From the IMG/VR virus record IMGVR_UViG_3300025529_000020, positions 1 through 37,835 of that record: DNA of 37,835 bases; one strand, 5' to 3'. The notes beneath the pieces are model-generated. The model was not told the origin of the DNA. It worked only from the letters and a program-made list of their open reading frames with translations, and searched no databases. Made by a program: the position numbers and the translations under genes. This DNA is from a virus. Shown piece after piece: positions 17,079 to 33,383 of the stretch; position 1 is the first letter of the stretch, and every line of letters begins with the position of its first letter.

Positions 17079-17108
17079 CCCCGGGGTTGGTGCCCCGGGG
17101 TTCTTTTA
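17079..17108 (+). terminator. Plus-strand terminator-like hairpin with no annotated upstream gene
   Basis: CCCCGGGG-ttggtg-CCCCGGGG followed by TTCTTTTAT; no T-tract in the minus orientation. Confidence 0.5.
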
Positions 17109-18065: not shown

Positions 18066-18095
18066 ACATTAGCATGATTGAGCAGTGCTGAGCAA
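18066..18095 (-). promoter_or_regulatory. Sigma-70-like promoter (TTGCTC - 18 nt - TAATGT) for gene 17324..18034
   Basis: Hexamers with 18-nt spacer read on the minus strand; spacer AGCACTGCTCAA resembles the two other promoters. Confidence 0.45.
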
Positions 18096-18495: not shown

Positions 18496-18524
18496 ACTAT
18501 ACCCCATTGCTCAGTACTGCGCAA
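18496..18524 (-). promoter_or_regulatory. Sigma-70-like promoter (TTGCGC - 17 nt - TATAGT)
   Basis: Minus-strand TTGCGC AGTACTGAGCAATGGGG TATAGT immediately after a terminator and upstream of the RBS/ATG at 18461. Confidence 0.6.
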
Positions 18525-18531
18525 GCCATTG

Positions 18532-18562
18532 GAGAAAAATCCCCGGGGCTCTCCCCGGGGCA
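18532..18562 (-). terminator. Intrinsic terminator (CCCCGGGG-agag-CCCCGGGG followed by ATTTTTCTCC)
   Basis: GC hairpin and T-tract on the minus strand after the stop of gene 18566..18796. Confidence 0.65.
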
Positions 18563-19602: not shown

Positions 19603-20556
19603 TTACGCGGCTGCCAGCTCGACTACTACCCGCCTCAGCTTTCTCAGCGCAGCGGCCTTGAGGGAACGTACACGTCCGGGATCGATTCCCATGATGTGCG
19701 CGGTCTCGGCGACACTGAGTTCCGGACCGCCCAGTCCGGTCAGGTGTACCAGTGCCTCACGCTCCCGGGGGGACACGTGATCGAGCAGACGATGCACGAG
19801 GTCCCGAGTTTCCACACTGGCTAGTGCAGCGGCCGAGCGGTGGCACTCCGCCGTGTCCCCGATGGTCTGCGTGGCGCTCTCGTCACACAGTTCCGACACC
19901 GGGGTATCCACGGACACATAATGTAGGGCTTCGTGGATGGCATCGAACTGTGCGTAGGACAGACCACGTGCGGTTTTGTCGTCTAGCTGCTGTGCCACAT
20001 CTAGCCCTTCCCGCTCCCAGCGTTCAATACGGCGGTCCAGGATGGCGGCAGCCATGTCATCTCCGGAGTCCGCCATGTCCTGCAGTTCTCGGCCGGTCAA
20101 CCCCTCACGGTGGGCCCATTCGCGTGCGAGTACCGGGTCGTGTCCACACGCTTCCATGGCTCTCCAGTAGCGGTGCTGTGCGGACGAGGAGATGCGGAAC
20201 GGGGAGCTGGCTACAGCGGCCTCCCTCACAGCGTTCTGGATGTGGCGATACGCCACGGTCATAGGTTCTGCAGAACCATCCGGGTCGTAGTCTCGCAGAA
20301 CCTCCACCAGCGCCATTAGCGCGGCCTGGTAGAGGTCCGCGTACTCCGCACTACGCTGGTAGTTTCTGACCAGGTGGTGGATCTGGTCTTCGTAACGTGC
20401 GGCAAGGATGACAAGCCCTTCGTCTCCGTACGCGGGGAGCTGACGGTTGGGGACGTGATCAAGGCCCAGACGTTCTTCGTAGGCACGTGCGGCGGTGCGG
20501 ACTGTGGCACGGACGATGTGTGCGGGGGATCTGGTGGCGATCAGTTCATCCAACAT
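19603..20556 (-). CDS. Phage-encoded sigma-70 family RNA polymerase sigma factor
   Basis: Region 2-like segment DLYQAALMALVEVLRDYDP and region 4-like HTH LSVAETAHIMGIDPGRVRSLKAAALRKLRR. Confidence 0.75.
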   Translation of the reverse strand: MLDELIATRSPAHIVRATVRTAARAYEERLGLDHVPNRQLPAYGDEGLVILAARYEDQIHHLVRNYQRSAEYADLYQAALMALVEVLRDYDPDGSAEPMTVAYRHIQNAVREAAVASSPFRISSSAQHRYWRAMEACGHDPVLAREWAHREGLTGRELQDMADSGDDMAAAILDRRIERWEREGLDVAQQLDDKTARGLSYAQFDAIHEALHYVSVDTPVSELCDESATQTIGDTAECHRSAAALASVETRDLVHRLLDHVSPREREALVHLTGLGGPELSVAETAHIMGIDPGRVRSLKAAALRKLRRVVVELAAA

Positions 20557-23367: not shown

Positions 23368-25830
23368 CTAGCGTACCTGACCGAACACGTCACGGTTCCC
23401 ACTCTGCGGGGATGGGTGATCCGCCGCAGTGGGGGAGTTCGCGACCAGCCGCACTCCGATGAGTGTCTGACCACGCTTGGTTTTGACGCGGTCAATACCG
23501 CGTTCCTCTAGGGCCCTGTAGAACGTTTGTCGTTTCCACCGTTCCCGCGGAGGCAGGTTTTCCGCCTCACACCAGTCCATGTAGGCGTTGAACGCGGCGT
23601 TACCCAAAACGCGGTCCTCAGGGTTGCCGGTCTTCTCGAGAACGCCGGGTAGAAAACCCGACAGGGCATCCGAGATCTCTCGGTACTCCCTGGTCGCTTT
23701 ACGCACCACTCCCGGATCCTGCAGACCATTCCGGTACCACTCCACAGCCCCGCGGACTGCCCAAGCCAGAATACCTTCGGCTTCCGCACGGAGCTTATCG
23801 GTCAGCTCATAGTCGCGTTCGTGTGGCTCAAACTTCCTCCTAAACGGGATCATCTTCACCCGACGCCACAAACCATCGTCCTGACCACGGAACAGGGGCT
23901 TGTGGTTAGTGTCCATCAACAGCAGGAACGTGGGCACGAACTCGAAGAACTCCTGCCGCAGGAAGCGGGCCACCAGCACGTTTCCACCGGTGGCTTGCTT
24001 GAGCACTCCTTCCGCCATGGGCTTGTCACGGTCGCCTTCAGAAGCCCGGACAATTCGAGCGCCGCGTAGGGCAGCCAAGTCGTTGGGGATACCCCCCGAG
24101 CGCTCCTCGAAAGTACTGAACGGTGTAGTGCGGGAAATAGCAGAAAACACAGACGTGATCGTGTCCATGAACACGCTTTTCCCGTTCGCACCTTTACCCC
24201 ACAGCACAGCGAAGCATTGTTCGGCGGTGCTCCCTGTGATCCCGTACCCGATGAGCCGCTGCATGTACGCGGGCAATTCCGGGTTGTACGGGAAAATCTC
24301 CTCCAAGAATTTTTCCCAGCGCGGGCACTTGGCGTCCGGCCGGTAGTCCACGTCCACGTAGCGGGTGATCATGTCCTCACGGCGGTGGGGACGCAGCATT
24401 CCCGTACGCAGATCGATGGTGCCGTTTCGGACAGCCAACAGGTCCGCACGTGCGTCGAAATCGCTAGCGCGGACGCGCACACCAGGGACGCTTTGCAACT
24501 CGCGAATGATGTGGTCAATACTCCTGGTCATGAGGAAGCTTCGAGCTTCCTTGGCCTTCCCTACAAGAGCGAGTGCCGCACCAATGCGGTAAACCTCCTG
24601 TCGCACATGGGACTCGGACGGTACCCAGCAGCGTCCATCCCACACGAAAAAGCCCAGCCCAGGCGCGTAGCGGATACGGTTGTCCGCGAACGCCACCAGT
24701 ACGTGAGCCCGCATAACGTCCGTATCCGACTCTGAGAACCGGTCGTGGTACGCACGGTACAACTCGGCGGCGCGTTCCCCATCCTCACGAGTGACCGCAT
24801 CCAGCCCGGTGCGGCTCAGCGCTTCCTTAGCGTCGATGCGCCGTTCCTCGTCCGGAGTGCGGACAGGGCGGGCGGCGCGTACCGCTTCGTGGAGTTTCCC
24901 CGCGAACCCTGCAGGGTCGCGTTCCCGCCAGTCGGTGAGGTCGTCTCCGGCGTTGGGGATGACCAGGTGCCGAACCTCAACCCCGTGGTTACGGAGCGCG
25001 GTGGAGATAGTCTGAGTGAACCGCTGCCCCGCCTCGTCCGCGTCCCCCGCTACCACGACGAGGGAGTCCTTCAGCGCTTCCGCCAGTTCACGTGCGAGTG
25101 CCTCACTCGACATCGCTGCACCGCGGACCGCCACAGCGTCATAACCTGCAGCGACCGCGGTGAGCGCGTCCCCAGGCCCTTCCGTGATGACCACTACGCC
25201 GTAGGATCCGCCGCCGCGCAAAAATCCGTATCGTTGCCACACCTTCCCCTGGGGGTTGCTCAGGCTCACCCACCGGGCTTGACACTTCCCAGTCAGGTCC
25301 CTGCCCTGCAGGCCGCGCACAGTACCGTGGCGGTCGTAGAGAGGGACCACCAGTCGCGGAAACGCGCGGTACGTGCGGGACAGATACGGCAACGTGAACA
25401 CGTCACCGCCCGGGTCAACGCCCACACCGAGATCCGCGGCCTGGTCAACGGTCAACCCGAACCGCCGCTCCACATACTCGGCGGCTAGACGGGCATCGTC
25501 GGTGTACTGTTCCCGAAGCCGCTTGGACGTAGCGTCCACGTATGCGGCGACCGCGGCGATCTCTGCAGGGCCCACCTGGTCAGGCTGGGTGGTGATGAGC
25601 TGTTCCGGTGCGGTCCACTGAAACAGGTCGCGTTCCTGCATGCCGAGTCGTTTCAGAACGTCCTTGGTCTCGCATCCAGCGCGGCAAGTCATCAGCAGCC
25701 TTCCTTCGTTAGTCACCGCCAGCGCGAGTGACGGCCGCTGGTCATCATGTGCAGGACAGTGCACCACCATGTTGCGGCCCTCGTTGACAACGTGCGGAAA
25801 ACGCTCCAGGAACTTGTTGAAGTCGCGCAT
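23368..25830 (-). CDS. Bifunctional primase / D5-like helicase (zinc-binding, Toprim, P-loop NTPase)
   Basis: HCPAHDD...CRAGC zinc motif, Toprim-like ITEGPGDALT, Walker A GKGANGKS; ATG at 25830 with GAGGGGAAG RBS. Confidence 0.75.
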   Translation of the reverse strand: MRDFNKFLERFPHVVNEGRNMVVHCPAHDDQRPSLALAVTNEGRLLMTCRAGCETKDVLKRLGMQERDLFQWTAPEQLITTQPDQVGPAEIAAVAAYVDATSKRLREQYTDDARLAAEYVERRFGLTVDQAADLGVGVDPGGDVFTLPYLSRTYRAFPRLVVPLYDRHGTVRGLQGRDLTGKCQARWVSLSNPQGKVWQRYGFLRGGGSYGVVVITEGPGDALTAVAAGYDAVAVRGAAMSSEALARELAEALKDSLVVVAGDADEAGQRFTQTISTALRNHGVEVRHLVIPNAGDDLTDWRERDPAGFAGKLHEAVRAARPVRTPDEERRIDAKEALSRTGLDAVTREDGERAAELYRAYHDRFSESDTDVMRAHVLVAFADNRIRYAPGLGFFVWDGRCWVPSESHVRQEVYRIGAALALVGKAKEARSFLMTRSIDHIIRELQSVPGVRVRASDFDARADLLAVRNGTIDLRTGMLRPHRREDMITRYVDVDYRPDAKCPRWEKFLEEIFPYNPELPAYMQRLIGYGITGSTAEQCFAVLWGKGANGKSVFMDTITSVFSAISRTTPFSTFEERSGGIPNDLAALRGARIVRASEGDRDKPMAEGVLKQATGGNVLVARFLRQEFFEFVPTFLLLMDTNHKPLFRGQDDGLWRRVKMIPFRRKFEPHERDYELTDKLRAEAEGILAWAVRGAVEWYRNGLQDPGVVRKATREYREISDALSGFLPGVLEKTGNPEDRVLGNAAFNAYMDWCEAENLPPRERWKRQTFYRALEERGIDRVKTKRGQTLIGVRLVANSPTAADHPSPQSGNRDVFGQVR

Positions 25831-25889: not shown

Positions 25890-26267
25890 TTATTGCCGGA
25901 GCTCTTTGACCACGCGCACGAACGTCGCACCGGACATGACCACCAAGCACTCGTGGGGACCGCGACCACGAACTTTCACCGCGGCCACACCGAAAGGCAG
26001 TCCAGCGTTCCGCGCTTCCTGTTCGGCTTGGCGAACGTACGCGGGCAGCTCGTGACGTGCCGTGTTTTTACACTCCACGACAAACGGGACTACCCACAGA
26101 TCCCCTACGTCGTGTATCCCCTGCTGTGCTTGGCGACGTGCGTTCAGTGGGGATGTGGGATCTAGGAACTCGTCTCCATCAGGGGTCACGAGCCCCAGTT
26201 CTCGGTTGAGGTAGCGTGCGAACTCGGTTTCCCACCGAGTCCCACGTCTTTTATTCGGGTTAGCCAC
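25890..26267 (-). CDS. PD-(D/E)xK family nuclease, possible Holliday junction resolvase (VRR-NUC-like)
   Basis: E...D(VGD)...ExK (VVECK) arrangement in a 125-aa protein next to replication genes. Confidence 0.45.
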   Translation of the reverse strand: MANPNKRRGTRWETEFARYLNRELGLVTPDGDEFLDPTSPLNARRQAQQGIHDVGDLWVVPFVVECKNTARHELPAYVRQAEQEARNAGLPFGVAAVKVRGRGPHECLVVMSGATFVRVVKELRQ

Positions 26268-26457
26268 GCGCCCCGCCCTCCTCTTGCAACAGCCTCACAT
26301 CAGCACCGCGCGCGTACGCGGTCATAACCGCCTGAGAGAGATCAGCCCAGTCGACTCTGCGGAGCGCGGACCGGTACACGTCCACACGATCGTCCGGACC
26401 CAAAAACCGCAAAACCCCACCGGTGGGAGCGCGGTTCTCCGACACCACGAAATGCAA
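26260..26457 (-). CDS. Hypothetical protein (about 65 aa)
   Basis: TTG start 5 nt after GGAGG within a conserved terminator-RBS cassette. Confidence 0.35.
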   Translation of the reverse strand: MHFVVSENRAPTGGVLRFLGPDDRVDVYRSALRRVDWADLSQAVMTAYARGADVRLLQEEGGARG

Positions 26458-26470
26458 GGTGACCTCCACA

Positions 26471-26512
26471 TAGAAAAGGGGAACCCCGGGATAGTTCCCG
26501 GGGCCGATCGGC
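26471..26512 (-). terminator. Conserved terminator-RBS cassette H1 (CCCCGGGA..TCCCGGGG hairpin + CCCCUUUUCU + GUGGAGG)
   Basis: GC hairpin followed by T-tract on the minus strand, then an SD-like sequence; shares about 40 nt with H2 and the hairpin with H3. Confidence 0.6.
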
Positions 26513-26514
26513 GT

Positions 26515-26985
26515 TTAGTTGCTAGCGGCCACCGCTTCCACCACGTGAGCAGCAGGAGCGGTGACGGTCCACAGGACGTACTCGTCCGTGCTGCCCACAA
26601 CCTCCGCCGTGCGGTTGCCGGTCAGTCCCGGTTCCCCGTGCGGAACGTGGACCAAGAACCGGATGCGGTCCCGAGAGATGTGACCCACGACCTGACACCG
26701 AAGGCCGTGGTACGTGAACCACGTGCCCGGAGTCACGGCCTGACGGTCGTACGCCACGGCCGGGCGGCCGAGACGCGTCTTCGTGGGACGGATAGGAGGC
26801 TTCGTGCGGTGACGCGCGCGGTTCTCCTGGAAGTGCTTCGGATGCGCTTCCTTCACGTGTCGTTCGAACTCCGCCCACGAGGCGAACGGGAGGTCACACC
26901 GCGGCCGGAGTCCCCACGGGATGTCCAACGCCTCTGGAGTTTCCAACTGCAGCCTGCAGTGGGCGCGAAACGTCTCGATGCTCAC
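26515..26985 (-). CDS. Hypothetical Cys/His-containing protein (about 157 aa), moron-like
   Basis: GTG at 26985 with GGAGGA RBS; bracketed by the two related terminator cassettes; ORF-track N-terminus overlaps the upstream HTH gene and is rejected. Confidence 0.45.
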   Translation of the reverse strand: MSIETFRAHCRLQLETPEALDIPWGLRPRCDLPFASWAEFERHVKEAHPKHFQENRARHRTKPPIRPTKTRLGRPAVAYDRQAVTPGTWFTYHGLRCQVVGHISRDRIRFLVHVPHGEPGLTGNRTAEVVGSTDEYVLWTVTAPAAHVVEAVAASN

Positions 26986-26997
26986 GTGTCCTCCACC

Positions 26998-27035
26998 TAG
27001 AAAAGGGGGACCCCGGGAGTTGACTCCCGGAGTCC
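26998..27035 (-). terminator. Conserved terminator-RBS cassette H2
   Basis: CCGGGAG...CTCCCGG hairpin followed by CCCCCTTTTCTAGGTGGAGGA on the minus strand. Confidence 0.6.
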
Positions 27036-27049
27036 CATGGTGAGCGGGG

Positions 27050-27259
27050 CTAGTCGACGTGTCGCCACGTAGTTCGCTGGACCACATGGCGTGCCGCGCG
27101 CTCACTGATACCGAACGCCCTAGCGAGAGAAGAGAGTTGCGCACCAGCGGCATGAGCAGCGCGCAGCGCGCGGACCTTATCCGCAGTGAGCAGCGCTGCC
27201 GGGTTACGCTCCCCGACACTCGGCGGTAGTTCGCGTTGAGTCATCGTCGGTGTGCTCAT
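27050..27259 (-). CDS. Small helix-turn-helix DNA-binding protein (69 aa)
   Basis: ATG overlaps upstream stop (TGATG) with GGGGAGA RBS; HTH-like LSSLARAFGISERAARHVV. Confidence 0.5.
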   Translation of the reverse strand: MSTPTMTQRELPPSVGERNPAALLTADKVRALRAAHAAGAQLSSLARAFGISERAARHVVQRTTWRHVD

Positions 27260-27771
27260 CAGCTGTCTCCCCATAGTTCCCTCAGCGCACGTTCGGTGCG
27301 CGCGCGGATCTCTTCACGCTTCTTGTCGGTCTTACGCCGCACTCGGCTCAGCGCGTTCTGGGTACGACGCACCACGGACTTAACGCGGCTACGGCTAAGT
27401 GTCAGCGACTCGCCTTGCGTACGCTCCACAGCGTCCCGCAACGCGCCGAGGAGCCCGGTCAGGTGCGCGCGCATATCCCGCTCCTGATCCAACTCCGCCT
27501 CTAGGAGCTCAGCGCGCTCACGCAAATAGACGATCTCGCGACCATGCTCAGCACAGTCGGCGGAACGTGCGTGCGCTTCCGCGATACTGCGCTGAGCGTG
27601 GTTGGTCACGGCAGCCCATTGGGCTTGCCAGCGCCCCACTTCCTCGAGCGCGCGAGCGTACCGCTCCTCGAGCCGATCCAAATGCTGGAGAATGTGACGT
27701 GGTACATCCGGGACATTGTGGAGCGCTTCCCGGATAGGTGCGAACTCTCTGGCAGACCGCTTTGCGCTCAT
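27259..27771 (-). CDS. Hypothetical coiled-coil protein (170 aa)
   Basis: Arg/Glu-rich helical ORF, translationally coupled to the downstream HTH gene. Confidence 0.45.
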   Translation of the reverse strand: MSAKRSAREFAPIREALHNVPDVPRHILQHLDRLEERYARALEEVGRWQAQWAAVTNHAQRSIAEAHARSADCAEHGREIVYLRERAELLEAELDQERDMRAHLTGLLGALRDAVERTQGESLTLSRSRVKSVVRRTQNALSRVRRKTDKKREEIRARTERALRELWGDS

Positions 27772-27844
27772 CTGTACGTCCTTACGTGAGTGTTTACGGG
27801 GAAAACGGGCCCGGGACAGTCAGTGACCATCCCGGGCACGCTCG

Positions 27845-31464: not shown

Positions 31465-31561
31465 GCTGACATCCCCCATTCCTATGTGTGGAGTACAGTC
31501 TATCGGTTGCGCAGTATGGGGCAACGGCCCCGGGAAGCGTTACCCGGGGCCGCTGTCGACG

Positions 31562-32937: not shown

Positions 32938-32967
32938 AATGTCCTCCTGTACGTCTGGTGGTGTGTA

Positions 32968-33006
32968 TGAAAAAGCCCCGGGATTTCCCCGGGGCCGATC
33001 GGCCGG
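32968..33006 (-). terminator. Conserved terminator H3 (GCCCCGGGA..TCCCCGGGGC hairpin + CUUUUUCAU) with adjacent GGCCGATCGGCC palindrome
   Basis: Same hairpin core and CCGATCGG element as H1. Confidence 0.6.
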
Positions 33007-33300
33007 TCAGGGCCGACGACGGCGGTTGATCACCACCATGTCGGTCTCGTCCTCACCCAGGAACAGGGCGAAGATCTGCCATTCGGCAATGGAGTCGTTG
33101 AAGCCCTCCATCTCATCGTTTTCATCGAACGCGATGAAGTGGCGGCCGTTGCCCAGCGGGCGGATGTAGCGCGCGAAGCGCTCCTCTCCGGAGATGGATT
33201 CGCGGAAGCCGATCAGGGTTCCAGCAGCCACGTCGTGGCCGTGAATGGTGTGGATGGGGAAGGAGCGGGCGGCGGCGTTGGCGGCGGCGAAGCTGGTCAT
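33007..33300 (-). CDS. Hypothetical acidic protein (97 aa)
   Basis: ATG at 33300 with AAGGAGGA RBS downstream of a sigma-70-like promoter. Confidence 0.5.
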   Translation of the reverse strand: MTSFAAANAAARSFPIHTIHGHDVAAGTLIGFRESISGEERFARYIRPLGNGRHFIAFDENDEMEGFNDSIAEWQIFALFLGEDETDMVVINRRRRP

Positions 33301-33353: not shown

Positions 33354-33383
33354 AATATAGCAGACTTGCTCAGTACTGCGCAA
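33354..33383 (-). promoter_or_regulatory. Sigma-70-like promoter (TTGCGC - 18 nt - TATATT)
   Basis: Minus-strand TTGCGC AGTACTGAGCAAGTCTGC TATATT; spacer nearly identical to the promoter at 18496-18524. Confidence 0.6.

Follow-up and report, generated by a model that had tools for sequence, protein, structure and literature searches.

Ingham, Hunter and Smith are said to have shown experimentally in 1995 that the early region of phage φC31 contains transcription terminators both with and without U tails. Their paper (Nucleic Acids Res 23:370) appears among the references of PMC2602773. In the φC31 sequence itself, intergenic hairpins of the early region are followed by a repeated promoter box. 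The moron concept, associated with the names of Juhala and Hendrix, belongs to the lambdoid phages. Repeated intergenic cassettes termed promoter-early stem-loops (PeSLs) are present in the T4-type phages RB49 and phi1; they carry a terminator stem-loop, often with polyG/polyC arms, and end at a Shine-Dalgarno (SD) sequence and start codon (PMC2839356, Arbiol et al., 2010). PeSLs are concentrated by variable genes of unknown function, and indels and replacements between close relatives end at these cassettes; terminator activity, promoter activity and the formation of mini-circles have been shown for them experimentally, as has shuffling mediated by the cassettes (PMC2839356). Stoperators of cluster A mycobacteriophages and R4-like phages are mentioned in PMC10276819. 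The present analysis concerns three intergenic hairpin elements, H1, H2 and H3, in a viral sequence of 37,835 nt (IMGVR_UViG_3300025529_000020, positions 1 to 37,835), the whole of which is referred to here as the window, together with ORF156, the small open reading frame (ORF) bracketed by H1 and H2.

H1, H2 and H3 are probably leaky intrinsic terminators or attenuators, belonging to a family with a CCCCGGG core in the early operons of this phage, and the cassettes appear to mark the boundaries of gene modules.

Anatomy of the hairpin elements

The genes around H1, H2 and H3 are located on the minus strand, and the elements read sensibly on this, the coding strand. In minus-strand order, the H1-H2 locus comprises a 74-amino acid (aa) helix-turn-helix (HTH) gene (27050-27274), H2, ORF156 (26515-26985), H1, a 65-aa gene assigned to phrog_15072 (26260-26457), a RusA-like gene (25890-26267) and the primase gene. 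H3 is the putative terminator after a 97-aa gene (33007-33300, minus strand). H2, H1 and H3 start 13, 9 and 10 nt after stop codons, respectively, the first of these being the stop codon of the HTH gene. The GTG start of ORF156 at 26985 is confirmed by an ATG at the same codon in relatives, and the TTG start at 26457 of the 65-aa gene, the first gene past H1, is kept in position in relatives as TTG or GTG.

The H2 stem-loop (27007-27036) has the form GGGACTCCGGGAG-tcaa-CTCCCGGGGTCCC, with a 13-bp stem containing one G·U pair, a UCAA loop and a predicted energy of about -27 kcal/mol; the flanked fold has a z value of -4.25, and the stem is identical in the related contig L002. The H2 tail (26986-27006) consists of the U-tract CCTTTTCTAG, reading CCUUUUCU directly after the stem, followed by GTGGAGGACAC; the SD sequence GGAGG (26994-26990) is separated by ACAC from the GTG of ORF156. 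The H1 stem-loop (26482-26505), GGCCCCGGGA-acta-TCCCGGGGTT, has 9-10 bp and about -18 kcal/mol, and is preceded by the palindrome CCGATCGG at 26512-26505. Its tail (26458-26481) consists of CCCCTTTTCTAT and then GTGGAGGTCACC, the SD sequence GGAGG (26467-26463) being separated by TCACC from the TTG of the 65-aa gene. H3 (32966-33004) comprises the same CCGATCGG palindrome, the hairpin GGCCCCGGG-gaaat-CCCGGGGCT (32996-32974; 9 bp, about -20 kcal/mol) and TTTTCAT, the U-tract right after the stem reading CUUUUUCAU. The SD sequence AGGAGG and the ATG (32937) of the next gene are located about 24 nt further on.

The stems of both H1 and H2 are followed by CCCCTTTTCTA-N-GTGGAGG and a start codon, with only about 10-11 nt from the T-tract to the SD sequence. 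The window contains exactly two copies of the 19-mer CCCCTTTTCTANGTGGAGG, where chance would give 0.02, and a gapped alignment of H1 with H2 has 46 identical positions out of 61. Over the 33 nt past the right arm, H1 and H2 have 24 positions in common, while all other pairs of hairpins in the window have 4-14. The look-alike cassettes described in an earlier, sequence-only reading of the window are thus real and lie where it placed them, and the anatomy that it gave, a terminator immediately followed by an SD sequence, is borne out by the succession of stem, U-rich tract, SD sequence and start codon. The same reading had noted the hairpin and the palindrome at H3 as well: the hairpin core and the CCGATCGG prefix are indeed common to H3 and H1, whereas the T-tract/SD block is not, H3 having its own CTTTTTCAT tail. 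Further copies of the core were missed.

About 13 strong intergenic hairpins are present on the coding strand of the window, at least seven of them with a CCCGGG or CCCCGGGG core, namely H3, 31555-31522, 27837-27809, H2, H1, 18560-18541 and 17100-17079. The pattern CCCGGG-N3-8-CCCGGGG is found at five sites in the window (0.06 expected), and a terminator scan placed H2, H1 and H3 among its top minus-strand matches. The remaining core members listed, all on the minus strand, vary in what follows the stem. The hairpin at 27809-27837 (CCCGGG core, CCGTTTTCCCC tail, -30 kcal/mol), the loop of which exceeded the limit of the initial hairpin scan, occupies the gap between the Gp3-like and 170-aa genes and adjoins recurrent homology breakpoints at 27810/27767. 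The 13-bp CCCCGGG-core hairpin at 31522-31555 has no U-tract and abuts an operator/promoter-like site. At 18541-18560, a CCCCGGGG hairpin with a ATTTTTCT tail is followed by another operator/promoter-like site (TTGCGCAGTACTGAGCAA ... TATAGT), while the CCCCGGGG hairpin at 17079-17100, again without a U-tract, is found upstream of an SD sequence and an ATG. In the window and its relatives alike, a U-rich tract follows most members of the family and only a few lack it.

An alignment of 17 copies, taken from the window and from relatives, shows an invariant 7-bp core, loops of 3-8 nt with variable sequence, and compensatory changes in the two basal pairs. Compensatory arm changes (GAG...CTC vs. 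GGGA...TCCC) also distinguish the two types of hairpin found upstream of ORF156, and the single G·U pair of H2 is replaced by A-U in contig L036. The basal-pair compensation and the variable spacing of the arms favor a folded hairpin over a protein operator, as far as this can be judged from alignments.

No Rfam family reached its gathering threshold anywhere in the window; a sub-threshold match to anti-hemB covers H1 (20 bits vs. 49.5). Sequestration of the SD sequence was also considered: pairing between the pyrimidine tract and GGAGG occurs in the predicted folds of H2 and of H1 from contig L009, and it is weak (5 bp with G·U) and was treated as incidental. Such pairing is not predicted for H1 of the window, and an outer GCUCAC/GUGAGC stem around H2 is not kept in L002.

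Junctions among relatives and transcription through the locus

The relatives used for comparison are about 20 contigs from IMG/VR, Logan, ENA and JGI, denoted by numbers with the prefix L; L004, with a Gp3 55% identical, was too divergent for alignment in the H1-H2 interval. Two main types of junction are found upstream of ORF156. Type A, with a short hairpin, a T-tract and an SD sequence, is present in the window, L002 and L036. Type B, present in L003, L006, L008, L009, L010, L027, L037, L038 and L039, comprises a GAGCCCCGGGAACTGTCCCGGGGCTC hairpin and about 75 nt with a promoter-like TTGTGT-17-TAGTGT, then the same GTGGAGGACAG-ATG. The spacer upstream of ORF156 carries the palindrome TTGTGCAGTACTGCACAA in L005 and L034, and the distant contig L023 has a CCCCGGG hairpin and TTTT at this junction.

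At the downstream junction, an H1-type hairpin directly precedes the 65-aa gene in the window, L002, L006, L039 and L005. In L009, L027 and L028 the hairpin is followed by a Dam methylase gene and then by the 65-aa gene, the insert beginning between the T-tract and the SD sequence. L003 has an H1-type hairpin, an N6/N4 methylase gene, another hairpin and a Dam gene. The N6/N4 methylase module follows ORF156 in L003 and precedes it in L034 and L033; its copies in L003 and L034 are about 75-85% homologous from the first base of the leading hairpin to the right arm of the trailing hairpin, while the flanks are unrelated. The N6/N4 methylase (PF01555) and the Dam-type D12 methylase (PF02086) are the main cargo between hairpin junctions, at L003:8150-8990 vs. 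L034:2838-3672, L009:980-1780 and L027:5859-6659, and neither is present at this locus in the window. A link to restriction sites, suggested by arms that are CCCGGG sites and by the mobile methylases, was considered and rejected: the count of CCCGGG in the window, 34 against 28 expected, points to neither avoidance nor enrichment, and the other palindromes tested are unremarkable.

Similar changes are seen around H3. L003 lacks exactly the segment 33345-32966 of the window, that is, the 97-aa gene and H3, and L002 carries immediately after the H3 T-tract a 65-nt operator/promoter insert that the window lacks. Each intergenic hairpin from 34 kb to 26 kb falls at a homology breakpoint in one or more of the comparisons. 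Of 56 breakpoints overall, 21 are no more than 40 nt from a hairpin, where 8% would be expected by chance, although the comparisons are not phylogenetically independent. The tail of H2 in the window is nearly identical to the H1 tail of L002, a better match than to its own orthologous junction of type B in relatives.

At the RNA level, the hairpin and U-tract after a stop codon, with the SD sequence of the next gene directly behind them, would end part of the transcripts, and the hairpin could also stabilize their 3' ends; the downstream genes would then be translated only from read-through RNA. No recognizable, hairpin-free promoter candidate was found between H2/H1 and the primase or polymerase genes. 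Because the RusA-like gene, primase and PolA are located downstream and no promoter is recognizable between, termination at H2 and H1 must be partial or overridden. The likely outcome would be a graded fall in transcript abundance along the early operon, possibly with stabilized 3' ends. Rather than the GTG further upstream at 25950, the start of the primase is most likely the ATG at 25830 on the minus strand (MRDFNKF..., as in relatives), which leaves a gap of 59 nt after the stop of the RusA-like gene (25890); this gap might hold an unrecognized promoter.

At the DNA level, the dispersed cassettes of about 25-40 nt, which coincide with breakpoints, may provide homology for recombination that moves modules. 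The likeness of the H1 and H2 tails would most readily result from an exchange of sequence between these junctions in the lineage common to the window, L002 and L036, as suggested by the 24 of 33 common positions against 4-14 for other pairs and by the match of the window H2 tail to the L002 H1 tail. Such an exchange would have replaced the promoter-like module of about 75 nt present in most relatives, unless this lineage never acquired it; the opposite direction, with type B gaining the promoter, is also conceivable. It is possible, though on balance doubtful, that the hairpin cassettes are active recombination substrates that relocate the methylases, the 97-aa gene and promoter/operator units and rewrite junctions, the H2 tail of the window being a copy of an H1 tail, while the same hairpins tune read-through into the replication genes.

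Several observations weigh against assigning these functions to the hairpins. Termination at H1, H2 and H3 is predicted from sequence alone, and in H1 of the window a CCCC stretch lies between the main stem and the UUUU, a less than ideal arrangement for intrinsic termination; H1 alleles with better U-tracts are present in L002 (CCUUUUUCU) and L009 (UCUUUUCUUCU). L036 lacks H1, having TAA-tGGAGGcagccTTG in its place, and hairpins are also missing from the downstream junction of L023 and from these junctions in L025, so that the elements are dispensable. Breakpoints occur in gaps without hairpins as well (e.g., 29963-29826 and 29698-29629), and selection for intact genes alone would place surviving joints in intergenic DNA, with no role for a hairpin.

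ORF156 and alternative explanations

ORF156 encodes 156 aa in a true coding frame, as indicated by substitutions in the ratio 123:137:343 by codon position in five relatives. These counts settled the frame, since the GC content of third codon positions is uninformative at the GC content of this genome and length-greedy calls yield shadow ORFs; one such shadow is a 238-aa ORF on the opposite strand. The sequence-only reading had assigned the right start, the GTG at 26985, to a product of 157 aa, one residue too long.

The product matched no Pfam or PHROG family, and only a handful of close homologs were found among 5.8 billion proteins. A profile search of 1.8 billion representatives added about 10 further clusters at 32-42% identity. 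In this family, C10, C30, H43 and H48 are invariant or nearly so, as is F34, giving the arrangement C..C..H-x4-H. The segment C30-x12-H43-x4-H48 resembles half of a C2H2 finger, but the first cysteine, C10, is 19 residues away and not 2-4. Residues 24-57 of the family profile match repeatedly within large C2H2 arrays, and one homolog gives zf-C2H2_6 at E = 0.006, below the cut-off. The finger-like region is followed by a basic GRPAV linker and a conserved C-terminal domain of five beta strands with a helix. The AlphaFold2 model has a mean predicted local distance difference test score of 69, with about 80-88 in the C-terminal domain and low confidence in the finger region; a Foldseek comparison of this model with the PDB and BFVD found nothing with E < 0.04. 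ORF156 and its homologs P0006-P0014 form an uncharacterized phage protein family, whose genes in φC31-like contigs always lie a short way ahead of the primase block.

The bracketed gene had been proposed to be a moron-like unit, ORF156 and its flanking cassettes having been acquired independently between the HTH and 65-aa genes. The gene does have a self-contained look in most relatives, where a terminator and a sigma70-like promoter (TTGTGT-17-TAGTGT) precede it and a terminator follows; in L005 and L034 its promoter carries an operator palindrome, L034 and L003 differ in which of the two, ORF156 or the methylase module, comes first, and a tblastn search with ORF156 found no homolog in GenBank phages. 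However, no recovered relative lacks the gene, not even those found via the Gp3, 170-aa and HTH genes (L002, L003, L027, L028, L036, L038, and L039), and homologs of 39-42% identity occupy the same position before a gene of about 64 aa, the RusA-like gene and primase. Thus, P0007 (42% identical; L022/L023) is found in the order Gp3, two small genes, homolog, 63-aa gene, 126-aa gene, primase and polymerase, and P0008 (39% identical; L025) in the order N6/N4 methylase, homolog, 64-aa gene, 50-aa gene, 134-aa gene and primase. None of the approximately 20 contigs has the HTH and 65-aa genes adjacent or ORF156 deleted by recombination between H1 and H2. The GC content of 0.636 for 26001-27000 does not deviate from the 0.62-0.64 of the neighboring kilobases, and the cassette of the window has no promoter of its own, H1 serving as terminator. 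The moron-like origin is therefore quite improbable; judged by its sequence and position, ORF156 is not an insertion; it is a conserved early gene with a small zinc-finger-like protein as its product. The suggestion that the repeated cassette marks acquired DNA fails for ORF156 and holds for the methylases (L009, L027, L003) and for the 97-aa gene with H3. The refutation named with that proposal, a syntenic gene without conserved cassettes, describes the gene well and the cassettes only in part. The remaining suggestion of a shared attenuation or processing element fits the data, both hairpins being kept in L002 and the H1-type hairpin in most close relatives.

Other explanations concern the hairpins themselves. 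Were they RNA processing or stability elements, such as RNase III/E sites or blocks to 3'-exonucleases, setting mRNA half-lives in a polycistronic early transcript, their long, perfectly paired stems would be expected, as would the members without a U-tract (31555-31522, 17100-17079, and 20610-20579), and the essential replication genes downstream make efficient termination implausible. Most copies, nevertheless, have a U-rich tract that is kept across different junctions and that a pure processing site would not need, which makes this role on its own unlikely; moreover, processing does not exclude attenuation. A different function would be that of DNA-binding sites, the CCCCGGG...CCCGGGG palindromes being recognized by a repressor, in the manner of stoperators or conserved inverted repeats (CIRs), or by the adjacent HTH or zinc-finger-like proteins. 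In keeping with such a function, the palindromes are intergenic, the phage is temperate and φC31-like and has a gene for a repressor-c-like protein, and HTH and zinc-finger-like proteins are encoded beside the palindromes. The invariance of the core in all 17 copies, paralogous ones included, could reflect a sequence-specific role of this kind, and it lends little covariation support to the hairpins. The half-sites are, however, 3 to 13 nt apart, which is unsuited to a dimeric operator, compensation in the basal pairs preserves pairing and not sequence, and a fixed-length 18-bp palindrome, TTGCGCAGTACTG(A/C)GCAA, at four promoter-like sites is a better candidate; the operator function is accordingly very improbable for the hairpins. 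Finally, H1 and H2 could resemble each other by functional convergence only, with no exchange or shared descent, as intergenic regions of actinophages, φC31 among them, commonly contain GCCCC...GGGGC stems, U-tracts and GGAGG. Generic design would hardly produce an exact 19-mer twice, the excess of common positions over all other terminator and SD junctions of the window, or an H2 tail closer to the L002 H1 allele than to the orthologous type B junction, and convergence alone can be given scarcely any weight. The preferred reading is thus still that of leaky terminators or attenuators located at module boundaries.

Phage context and comparison with described systems

By gene order and proteins, the window represents a φC31-like phage, with a D5-type primase about 52% identical to those of TG1, φC31 and φBT1. 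The φC31-like set comprises lysins, a repressor-c-like protein, a PD-(D/E)XK nuclease, a Gp3-like recombination directionality factor, small genes, the RusA-like gene, the D5-type primase, PolA, a sigma-like protein, a large serine integrase, and terminase and structural genes. A megablast search with a 3-kb segment spanning the locus found no nucleotide match to deposited phages (50,697 records), and tblastn with the 65-aa protein found nothing in phage records. The phage is a distant φC31-like member of a small, as yet uncultured and undescribed clade. The contig L008 (JAFIDK010000020.1; 5,259 bp), about 80% identical to the early region, comes from an assembly of Algoriphagus aestuarii (Bacteroidota), of which it is probably a contaminant, and gives no clue to the host.

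The 18-bp near-palindrome mentioned above occurs at four sites of the window (33366-33383, 18507-18524, 31507-31524, and 18078-18095) against 0.03 expected, and also at L005:1-20, L034:3683-3700 and L002:~1607-1625. At these sites, sigma70-like promoters (TTGCGC ... TATAGT or TATATT) closely follow terminator hairpins, and the near-palindrome overlaps their -35 box and spacer. From its sequence and placement it looks like a candidate repressor operator of the clade, an analog of the φC31 CIRs; its sequence differs from that of the φC31 early-promoter box.

Other features of the window include a 317-aa protein with sigma-70 region 2 and region 4 domains (19603-20556, minus strand), indicating that the phage encodes a sigma factor; its gene is located between the replication genes and the integrase, and it may drive late transcription. 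A TATGCT hexamer (30761-30732, minus strand), after a hairpin at 30794-30761, lies 6 nt before the ATG of the 227-aa repressor-c-like gene, which has no evident SD sequence and whose transcript may be leaderless. The segment 31562-32515 (minus strand) contains a low-complexity, repetitive and putatively coding stretch rich in Glu, Arg and Asn (...NEERNEERNEERDEEQQRNGERDEERN...), with internal BLAST repeats at 31916-31794. Off-diagonal BLAST matches point to a tandemly duplicated sequence, the period being about 117 nt, at 29826-29595 (minus strand), in and near the 140-nt gap between an 81-aa and a 275-aa gene; it is kept in L002 (4710-4940).

The useful part of the analysis is the comparative picture, in which the same hairpin of about 25 nt is found at nearly every variable junction of the clade, promoter/operator units and methylase genes come and go at its 3' edge, and one methylase module occupies two different hairpin-bounded slots. 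If recombination at the hairpins is real, a mechanism based on mobile regulatory cassettes would extend from T4-type coliphages to temperate actinophages, in which attenuation of transcription and genome plasticity would be linked through a single short element, and it would offer an explanation for mosaic boundaries in phages of the φC31 group, from which an integrase and a repressor in wide use as tools derive. The family also provides candidate compact terminators for actinobacterial synthetic biology. As a caution, synteny should be checked before a terminator-flanked small gene is named a moron.

ORF156 resembles the lambdoid morons in that most relatives carry this small gene of unknown function between a promoter-like site and a terminator; it differs in being syntenic down to about 39% identity, in its location in the early region and not in a late operon, in its undeviating GC content and, in the window, in the lack of its own promoter. 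Like the CIRs of φC31 and the stoperators, the elements are inverted repeats that recur between the genes of a temperate actinophage, but operators are fixed in length and spacing, whereas the hairpins of the window have variable loops and U-tracts.

The PeSL phages are unrelated to the phage of the window in lineage and host phylum, and a PeSL always includes a strong sigma70 promoter, which H1, H2 and H3 lack; here the promoter is a separable module, found at the hairpins 33427 and 18560 and in relatives. The succession of stem-loop, SD sequence and start codon is nevertheless the same, as are the clustering of the short cassettes beside variable genes and the placement of cassettes at the boundaries of insertions, deletions and replacements, features read in the present case from nucleotide sequences.

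As transcription signals, the elements would be ordinary phage early-region terminator hairpins of the sort already described for φC31, the novelty lying in the undescribed clade. The early hairpins of φC31 are often located just upstream of early promoters, while at H1, H2 and H3 the hairpin abuts an SD sequence with no promoter between. Nucleotide homology with the φC31 hairpins does not extend beyond the generic stem design, and one CCCCGGG core is here reused at at least seven sites. The φC31 early-promoter box (GGGTTGCCGAC.CCTTA) is absent, and the clade seems to use sigma70-like promoters with the 18-bp palindrome. Both systems nonetheless belong to the same phage lineage and the same genome region, and in both of them GC-rich GCCCC...GGGGC stem-loops are located between small early genes.

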